A stretch of DNA of 64,000 nt from Candidatus Woesearchaeota archaeon (lineage in GTDB: Archaea; Nanobdellota; Nanobdellia; Woesearchaeales; 21-14-0-10-32-9). How positions within the stretch are numbered: the first letter of the stretch is position 1; every line of letters begins with the position of its first letter. Location of the stretch: the NCBI GenBank assembly GCA_047602735.1, contig JBLKOK010000004.1, positions 13,480 to 77,479 on the forward strand, given 5' to 3'. The position numbers were made by a program, and so were the translations under genes. Below the pieces are notes generated by a model, which searched no databases, had not been told where the DNA came from, and was given only the letters and a program-made list of their open reading frames with translations. Of this stretch, positions 23,401 through 23,492 are shown piece by piece.

Positions 23401-23492
23401 TTTTTTTTTTTTTTTTTTTTTTTTTTTTTTTTTTTTTTTTTTTTTTTTTATTTTTTTTTTTTTTTTTTTTTTTTTTTTTTTTTTTTTTTTTT
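23401..23492. repeat. 92-nt homopolymer: T49, one A, T42
   Basis: Read directly from the sequence: T from 23401-23449, A at 23450, T from 23451-23492. Intergenic, between divergent genes. Confidence 0.95.

Follow-up and report, generated by a model that had tools for sequence, protein, structure and literature searches.

Why does an archaeal intergenic region carry a nearly pure poly(dT) tract of 92 nt, is the tract real at that length, and what might it do? The tract lies in a 64-kb stretch of DNA (the window; C4:13480-77479) from a Woesearchaeal metagenome-assembled genome (MAG), which comprises 817 kb in seven contigs at 30% G+C and whose genes, among them those for Cbf5 with a DKCLD domain, DUF357 and a histone, mark it as archaeal. 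The favoured answer, to which we assign a probability of roughly 0.55, is a hypermutable poly(dT) microsatellite that arose from a terminator-type T-rich stretch and whose role goes no further than that of a super-terminator or insulator working in one direction, and perhaps that of a histone-free patch.

As assembled, the tract occupies positions 23401-23492 (+ strand) and consists of T49 (23401-23449), a single A (23450) and T42 (23451-23492), bordered by G on its 5' side and by ATGTAAAT on its 3' side. Read from the window, this is exactly the sequence given in the preliminary description of the locus; the 92-nt length is that of one assembly only. The distances given there were reproduced as well. 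The start of the minus-strand kinase gene at GTG 23278 is 123 nt away (about 120 nt had been stated), or 138 nt if the likelier ATG 23263 is used, and the TATA-like box TTTATATA (23560-23567) of the plus-strand gene lies 68 nt to the right (about 65 nt had been stated). The tract also follows the tRNA-fragment repeat as described, starting 34 nt after the repeated tRNA-Arg 3' end (23349-23366).

The window holds no other A/T run of 12 nt or more and no G/C run of 8 nt or more. Across the 817-kb genome, the counts of A/T runs decay smoothly with length to 14 cases at length 10; above this there is about one case per length, with isolated runs of 11-16, 22, 28, 42, 44, 49 and 72. The expected number of runs of T22 or longer is about 1e-4 (our own arithmetic, at a T frequency of about 0.35). 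The runs of 22, 28, 42, 44, 49 and 72 are thus gross outliers that chance cannot yield. To our knowledge, the chromosomes of bacteria and archaea hardly ever contain homopolymers longer than about 20 nt, and we know of no longer homopolymer described from a prokaryotic chromosome. In a search of the open-access literature, no account of long poly-T tracts was found for DPANN or for any other archaea. The tract nevertheless joins known things, namely homopolymeric simple-sequence repeats and archaeal oligo-T terminators; it stands out mainly for its size and is one of several in its genome.

Continuity and length of the tract

Two proteins served to look for the locus in public assemblies, the ORFan encoded on the right-hand side (23589-24299) and, on the left, the kinase in its 164-aa form. 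This 164-aa start variant was matched, and no record was found of the exact 169-aa kinase form or of a 165-aa DUF302 protein. Logan contigs, built at k=31, provided the independent assemblies. The same locus is present in the Logan assemblies of at least 13 public runs from two accession series (mostly SRR324568xx-9xx, plus one SRR28154546). The flanks are 100% identical to the window in all contigs; in one of them (L010) there are 0 mismatches over 6.7 kb, a length over which the tract is the sole difference between the Logan and the genome assembly.

Two contigs, L010 (34 kb, SRR32456880) and L012 (SRR32456906), cross the tract and join the same two flanks, each with T22. Since crossing T22 at k=31 needs eight 31-mers that bridge the flanks, reads carrying T22 exist in two libraries. 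Nine further Logan contigs break within the tract, after 23, 24, 25, 26, 26, 26, 26 or 27 T's, and two low-coverage contigs end after 7 and 16 T's. The breaks at about k minus 5 are accounted for by k-mers that combine a long T run with at most five flank bases and are shared between loci; T26 followed by CTAAA, for instance, is found at a tract on C2 as well as at the tract of C4:144251. Because shared k-mers explain them, the breaks at T23-27 give lower length bounds only. The preliminary description had considered a chimeric assembly, which is ruled out, as L010 and L012 join identical flanks independently of the MAG. The tract exists, the join across it is genuine and its length is polymorphic. 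Both T22 and alleles longer than T22 exist; the 92-nt form and its internal A come from one assembly. Among genome and metagenome contigs other than the window's own genome, no exact match to the two junction sequences was found.

An error of length is a different matter from an error of joining, and the artefact proposed in the preliminary description survives in this narrower form, given that other assemblies show T22 or breaks at T23-27. A moderate tract of T22-T30 might be real, with T49-A-T42 representing inflation or mis-traversal in the MAG and the internal A an error that let the assembler bridge the run. We regard this as doubtful, though as an alternative of some substance. T22 is the only flank-to-flank length in the independent assemblies, and at C4:144251 the lengths disagree in the opposite direction, with T22 in the MAG versus at least T25-26 in Logan. 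Since MAG and Logan disagree both ways, the handling of long runs by assembly is unreliable. One MAG contig ends in T72 and other contig ends are A/T-rich and of low complexity, which indicates that homopolymers disturbed the assembly, and a one-base interruption is a shape that a de Bruijn assembler can traverse (a T30-G-T36 run at a contig end of another genome, G037, has the same shape). However, the output of such an assembler needs k-mers present in the reads or in earlier contigs, so runs of T42-T49 must have been read. Logan contigs also break at three other loci of this genome, as runs longer than k would predict (the A44 run of C2 at T25 in two runs, C4:144251 at 25 and the T72 contig end at 22-23), and the T23-27 breaks at the present tract, being lower bounds, do not speak for a short form. 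No exact overlap between contig ends was found for the assembler's k; the relation T72 = 77 - 5 hints at k = 77 but is only suggestive. If the length does reflect assembly inflation, all that is left is a run of unremarkable size, T22-T30, and a warning to those who assemble such DNA.

Tracts of this kind interrupt metagenome assemblies or falsify them; here, Logan contigs come to an end at four loci and a MAG contig at one. Long A/T homopolymers of eukaryotic and organellar DNA likewise hamper assembly and sequencing (PMC11384887, PMC3281049). Spurious poly-Phe or poly-Lys ORFs can also result. A 140-aa ORF (23076-23498, +) crosses the tract and has a long poly-Phe tail, and an 83-aa poly-Lys ORF is found at C4:144032-144283; both are homopolymer artefacts rather than genes.

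The displaced tRNA-Arg end and the genes on either side

The PGI gene is followed by an intact tRNA-Arg(GCG) gene (22687-22761, +), an order that relatives share and that is kept across the family. The end of this gene recurs as a direct repeat (22743-22768 versus 23349-23374; 24 of 26 positions identical, spacing 606 nt), so that inserted DNA is bracketed by a repeat of a tRNA 3' end, as with att repeats. The sole gene within the ∼606-bp insert encodes a P-loop kinase-like protein (AAA_33/KTI12-like; 22769-23263, - strand; 164 aa from ATG 23263, 169 aa from GTG 23278). Alignment to the closest relative (G004) showed that 23349-23400 (+), comprising the last 18 nt of tRNA-Arg(GCG) (23349-23366) and 34 nt of native flank, is homologous to the 3' end and flank of the intact tRNA-Arg of that genome. 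It follows that the original tRNA end was pushed aside by the kinase insert.

The insert looks like a decayed tRNA-integrated element. It resembles the archaeal elements of this kind in that the 18-nt tRNA-Arg 3' end and its flank are repeated 606 nt downstream, bracketing foreign DNA in a region that is variable across the genus. It differs from them in consisting of one kinase gene with no integrase, and the poly-T tract lies outside the bracketed segment. Neither an integrase nor another mobility gene was found in the insert or among the neighbours (ORFan, DedA, 2OG oxygenase, ThyA). At the right border of the 606-bp insert there is an inverted T-arm copy, forming a short inverted repeat (23327-23356) in which the reverse complement of a tRNA T-arm segment (GGGATTTGAACC) faces the CAAATCC of the displaced tRNA end. 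An Rfam search of the locus found no RNA family besides tRNA.

The sequence that stands in G004 at the point where the tract begins is GTGTTTTATTTTCTTTGGTTTTTCTTGTTTTGATGCGTTTTTCC, a T-rich stretch with T4-T5 runs that has the form of an archaeal terminator. The preliminary description had suggested a search of related genomes for tracts at the orthologous position; this yielded no long tract, the runs there being T4-T5 only in the closest relative and T6-T8 in the others.

Homology to G004 stops at the tract. To its right, the window carries an ORFan gene (23589-24299, +, 236 aa), a DedA/VTT protein and a 2OG-Fe(II) oxygenase, whereas G004 carries a Fic-like gene (read by eye from the translation) at the corresponding place. 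The ORFan belongs to no Pfam family and has no homologue among 5.8 billion proteins; it is missing from 40 relatives except for one weak match, and it is 100% conserved in seven independent Logan contigs. The DedA/VTT and oxygenase genes have no match in the relatives tested. Contigs of the same genus (L003, which is G004:C77:1-577, L004 and L005) end 0-580 nt after tRNA-Arg(GCG). Throughout the genus, the DNA behind tRNA-Arg has the appearance of a hot spot for integration, with variable content.

These observations bear on the suggestion in the preliminary description that the tract is the remnant of an element end. In its fuller form, the tract would be a junction scar or recombination hot spot, either the edge of an accessory insert that extends from 23493 to about 25700 and holds the ORFan, DedA and 2OG oxygenase genes, or a site of foreign-DNA capture. 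The end of homology exactly at the tract, the absence from relatives of the genes to its right, the adjoining att-like direct repeat of the tRNA and the breaking of the relatives' contigs just past tRNA-Arg all agree with it. Genes beside other tracts are likewise poorly conserved, and elsewhere in the genome a 2.4-kb block with a TrmB regulator and two ORFans lies between two poly-T tracts. Nevertheless, we consider it very unlikely. At the right border near 25700, neither an integrase or transposase nor a terminal repeat or second (partner) tract is present, and the tRNA repeat brackets the kinase insert on the left, not the right-hand segment. We also know of no prokaryotic element that ends in long poly-T. 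What stands of the suggestion is the place of the tract, at the limit of homology and beside an att-like repeat.

Termination, slippage and promoters

Archaeal terminators carry U-tracts of about 4-7 U, their efficiency rises with U-tract content and they are bound by aCPSF1; measured against the length of at least 4-7 T's on the sense strand, T49-A-T42 on the plus strand is amply long (PMC8716108). The tract, a T run on the plus strand, may share with the oligo-T terminators served by aCPSF1/FttA in Methanococcus maripaludis and Thermococcus kodakarensis (PMC8716108) a position 3' of a transcription unit. Six of the 17 runs of 11 nt or more in the genome (T13, T15, T15, T16, T44 and T72) begin at distance 0 from a sense-strand stop codon, and others of the 17 lie within 10-30 nt of one. 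The position of the tract 34 nt past the ancestral tRNA-Arg end, together with T44 and T72 at stop codons, fits terminator stretches expanded by slippage. Exceptions are C4:144251, C2:70 and the T35 run of genome G018, which lie outside a sense-strand terminator position.

There are also clear differences from known terminators, which have 4-7 consecutive U within a U-rich stretch of about 23 nt. The present tract is 10-20 times longer, is polymorphic in length and no longer stands behind an intact gene. The last of these points argues against the terminator reading, as no intact plus-strand gene lies directly in front of the tract and the displaced tRNA-Arg end is non-functional; the nearest intact one, tRNA-Arg, ends 640 nt upstream and has its own T7 stretch there. 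The preliminary description had proposed a strong bidirectional insulator or terminator. Its terminator half fits best, given the other long runs at stop codons and the ancestral tRNA end; its bidirectional half does not, because oligo-T terminates transcripts of one strand only, here the plus strand.

The sequence of events that we propose for the microsatellite would begin with slippage at replication, which may have expanded an ordinary T-rich stretch with T4-T5 runs downstream of tRNA-Arg. A small kinase-bearing element would later have integrated in the tRNA 3' end and displaced it. Where loop repair of the MutS/MutL type is lacking, runs past a threshold would drift by tens of bases, and cells of one population could then carry T22, T25 or more, up to about T92. 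On the plus strand, the tract would form a far more than sufficient U-tract terminator that blocks read-through from the tRNA and antisense to the kinase before the 23589 ORFan; on minus-strand transcripts it should have no terminator action. The rigid poly(dA:dT) would probably keep the divergent promoter region free of histone. The surplus length itself most likely came about neutrally, as a by-product, with no tuning behind it. Slippage as the origin, activity as a terminator and the exclusion of histone are all three inferred.

The repair genes of the family are consistent with such drift. MutS (domain V) is absent from all nine family genomes (G000-G008), and NucS/EndoMS is present in all nine. 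NucS corrects base mismatches, not insertion loops. With MutS absent and loops left unrepaired by NucS, long runs would be unstable. Most members of this MutS-less family nevertheless have no long runs, which indicates that missing repair permits such runs but does not suffice for them. Should the long alleles be genuine, microsatellites at terminator-type sites are free to expand unchecked in this small DPANN genome without MutS, and a single clonal population holds alleles that differ by tens of bases. The locus would then offer a natural system for slippage without loop repair, and for testing how archaeal termination depends on the length of the U-tract and how poly(dA:dT) acts on the histones of archaea.

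Slippage-prone, length-variable homopolymers are familiar from bacterial contingency loci (poly-G/C or poly-A/T in Campylobacter and Neisseria, the Bordetella fim promoters and the Mycoplasma vlp promoters). As in those loci, repeat length differs here between near-identical genomes, in a lineage without MutS/MutL. Bacterial contingency tracts, however, are 7-20 nt long and lie in a reading frame or between core promoter elements, where unit steps switch a gene. The Woesearchaeal tract spans 22-92 nt, is intergenic and outside core promoters, and has no surface or restriction gene beside it. The plus-strand box TTTATATA is about 22-29 nt upstream of ATG 23589; it was placed by archaeal promoter layout, and its position would imply a leaderless or near-leaderless mRNA for the 23589 gene. 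For the kinase, a putative promoter is marked by a minus-strand A/T box near 23300, about 100 nt from the tract. Both core promoters thus lie outside the tract, which argues against a tuning of promoter spacing. Of the hypervariable promoter spacer put forward in the preliminary description, the variability was borne out (T22, 23-27 or more, and 92, with zero flank differences); the spacer role was not, since core promoter spacing is unaffected by a tract ∼68 and ∼100 nt outside the TATA-like boxes.

Long poly(dA:dT) could also affect promoters through chromatin. One histone-fold gene lies at C1:99587-99769 in the genome, a single such gene is likewise found in 13 of 13 relatives, and oligomers of A and T only are excluded from archaeal nucleosomes (PMC3691661). 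The histone gene and this exclusion together make a histone-free patch plausible, and the tract is an A:T homopolymer upstream of promoters in a histone-bearing host, as expected of a nucleosome-excluding element. Eukaryotic poly(dA:dT) tracts (yeast nucleosome-depleted regions, Dictyostelium, Plasmodium, the Oikopleura mitogenome and the human TOMM40 '523 poly-T) are similarly long, rigid, polymorphic and intergenic, in hosts that bear histones. Unlike these, the present tract belongs to a prokaryotic chromosome of less than 1 Mb, in which runs above about 20 are very rare.

A selected regulatory element would go one step further, with a length-variable poly(dA:dT) excluding histone and thereby setting, and stochastically varying, the output of the kinase and ORFan promoters, a yeast-type logic used as an archaeal contingency switch. 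The location between divergent genes, 68 and ∼100 nt from their TATA-like boxes, the histone gene, the exclusion of A/T oligomers from archaeal nucleosomes (PMC3691661) and the length variation among otherwise identical genomes would all suit this role. We hold it to be quite unlikely, as neither core promoter contains the tract, and its neighbours, genes for a small kinase and an ORFan, do not fall into the surface or restriction-modification classes usual at contingency loci. T44 and T72 stand at gene 3' ends, not at promoters, and in a genome of 70% A+T one more histone-free patch may matter little.

Two further origins are hardly credible. Poly(dA:dT) melts easily, as the unwinding element of a replication origin would, and on the minus strand the tract is a poly(A) that follows the oxygenase-DedA operon, as would the tail of a retro-copied minus-strand transcript. 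The latter, however, would require a 3' UTR made up of ∼830 nt of antisense ORFan sequence, and there is no retroelement nearby. An origin was rejected, since both a GC-skew extremum and ORB-like repeats are absent at the site; there is also no nearby orc1/cdc6 among the genes scanned.

Long A/T runs elsewhere in the genome and in relatives

Besides the tract under study, the genome contains at least four more extreme A/T runs, of T22, T28, T44 and T72 or more, the last at a contig end. At C2:142987-143030, a minus-strand DUF302 gene has an A44 run directly behind its stop codon, 46 nt short of the next gene start. At C4:144251-146760, a 2.4-kb block with a TrmB-family regulator and two ORFans (157 and 334 aa) lies between T22 and T72 in the MAG, and one Logan contig (L044) starts and finishes exactly in these two tracts. 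A shared flank motif was considered as the signature of an element and rejected, as a weak CTAAA follows two tracts only.

Long runs are sporadic among related genomes. Runs of T30 or longer occur in 6 of 151 genomes of the order, often at contig ends, and runs of T20 or longer in 5 of 19 close relatives. A congener (G002) has four runs of 20-28, of which the two that are internal and have gene context are found 3' of a stop codon on the sense strand, at distances of 17 and 22 nt. In G037, the T30-G-T36 run at a contig end (L019, G037:C41:1995-2061) is a long run with a single-base interruption, as here. Comparison of synteny at the other tracts found that neighbouring genes are not conserved in the genus.

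A broader role can be imagined for these runs, in which the genome-wide poly(dT) class (22 to more than 90 nt, sporadic in relatives) would serve as super-terminators and histone-free boundaries at the 3' ends of genes and along the borders of accessory blocks. Length variation within a clonal population would then give heritable differences in read-through or promote the capture and loss of flanking genes. We judge this proposal improbable as a whole; the neutral microsatellite described above is the reading that we retain.

One further A/T-rich site concerns the contig ends themselves. The last ∼49 nt of C1 (189164-189226) recur in the first 135 nt of C3 (73-135), and the shared segment is preceded by differing A-rich stretches, A16 in one and A14-TAA in the other. 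C1 and C3 are probably adjacent, with a junction that is variable and A/T-rich.
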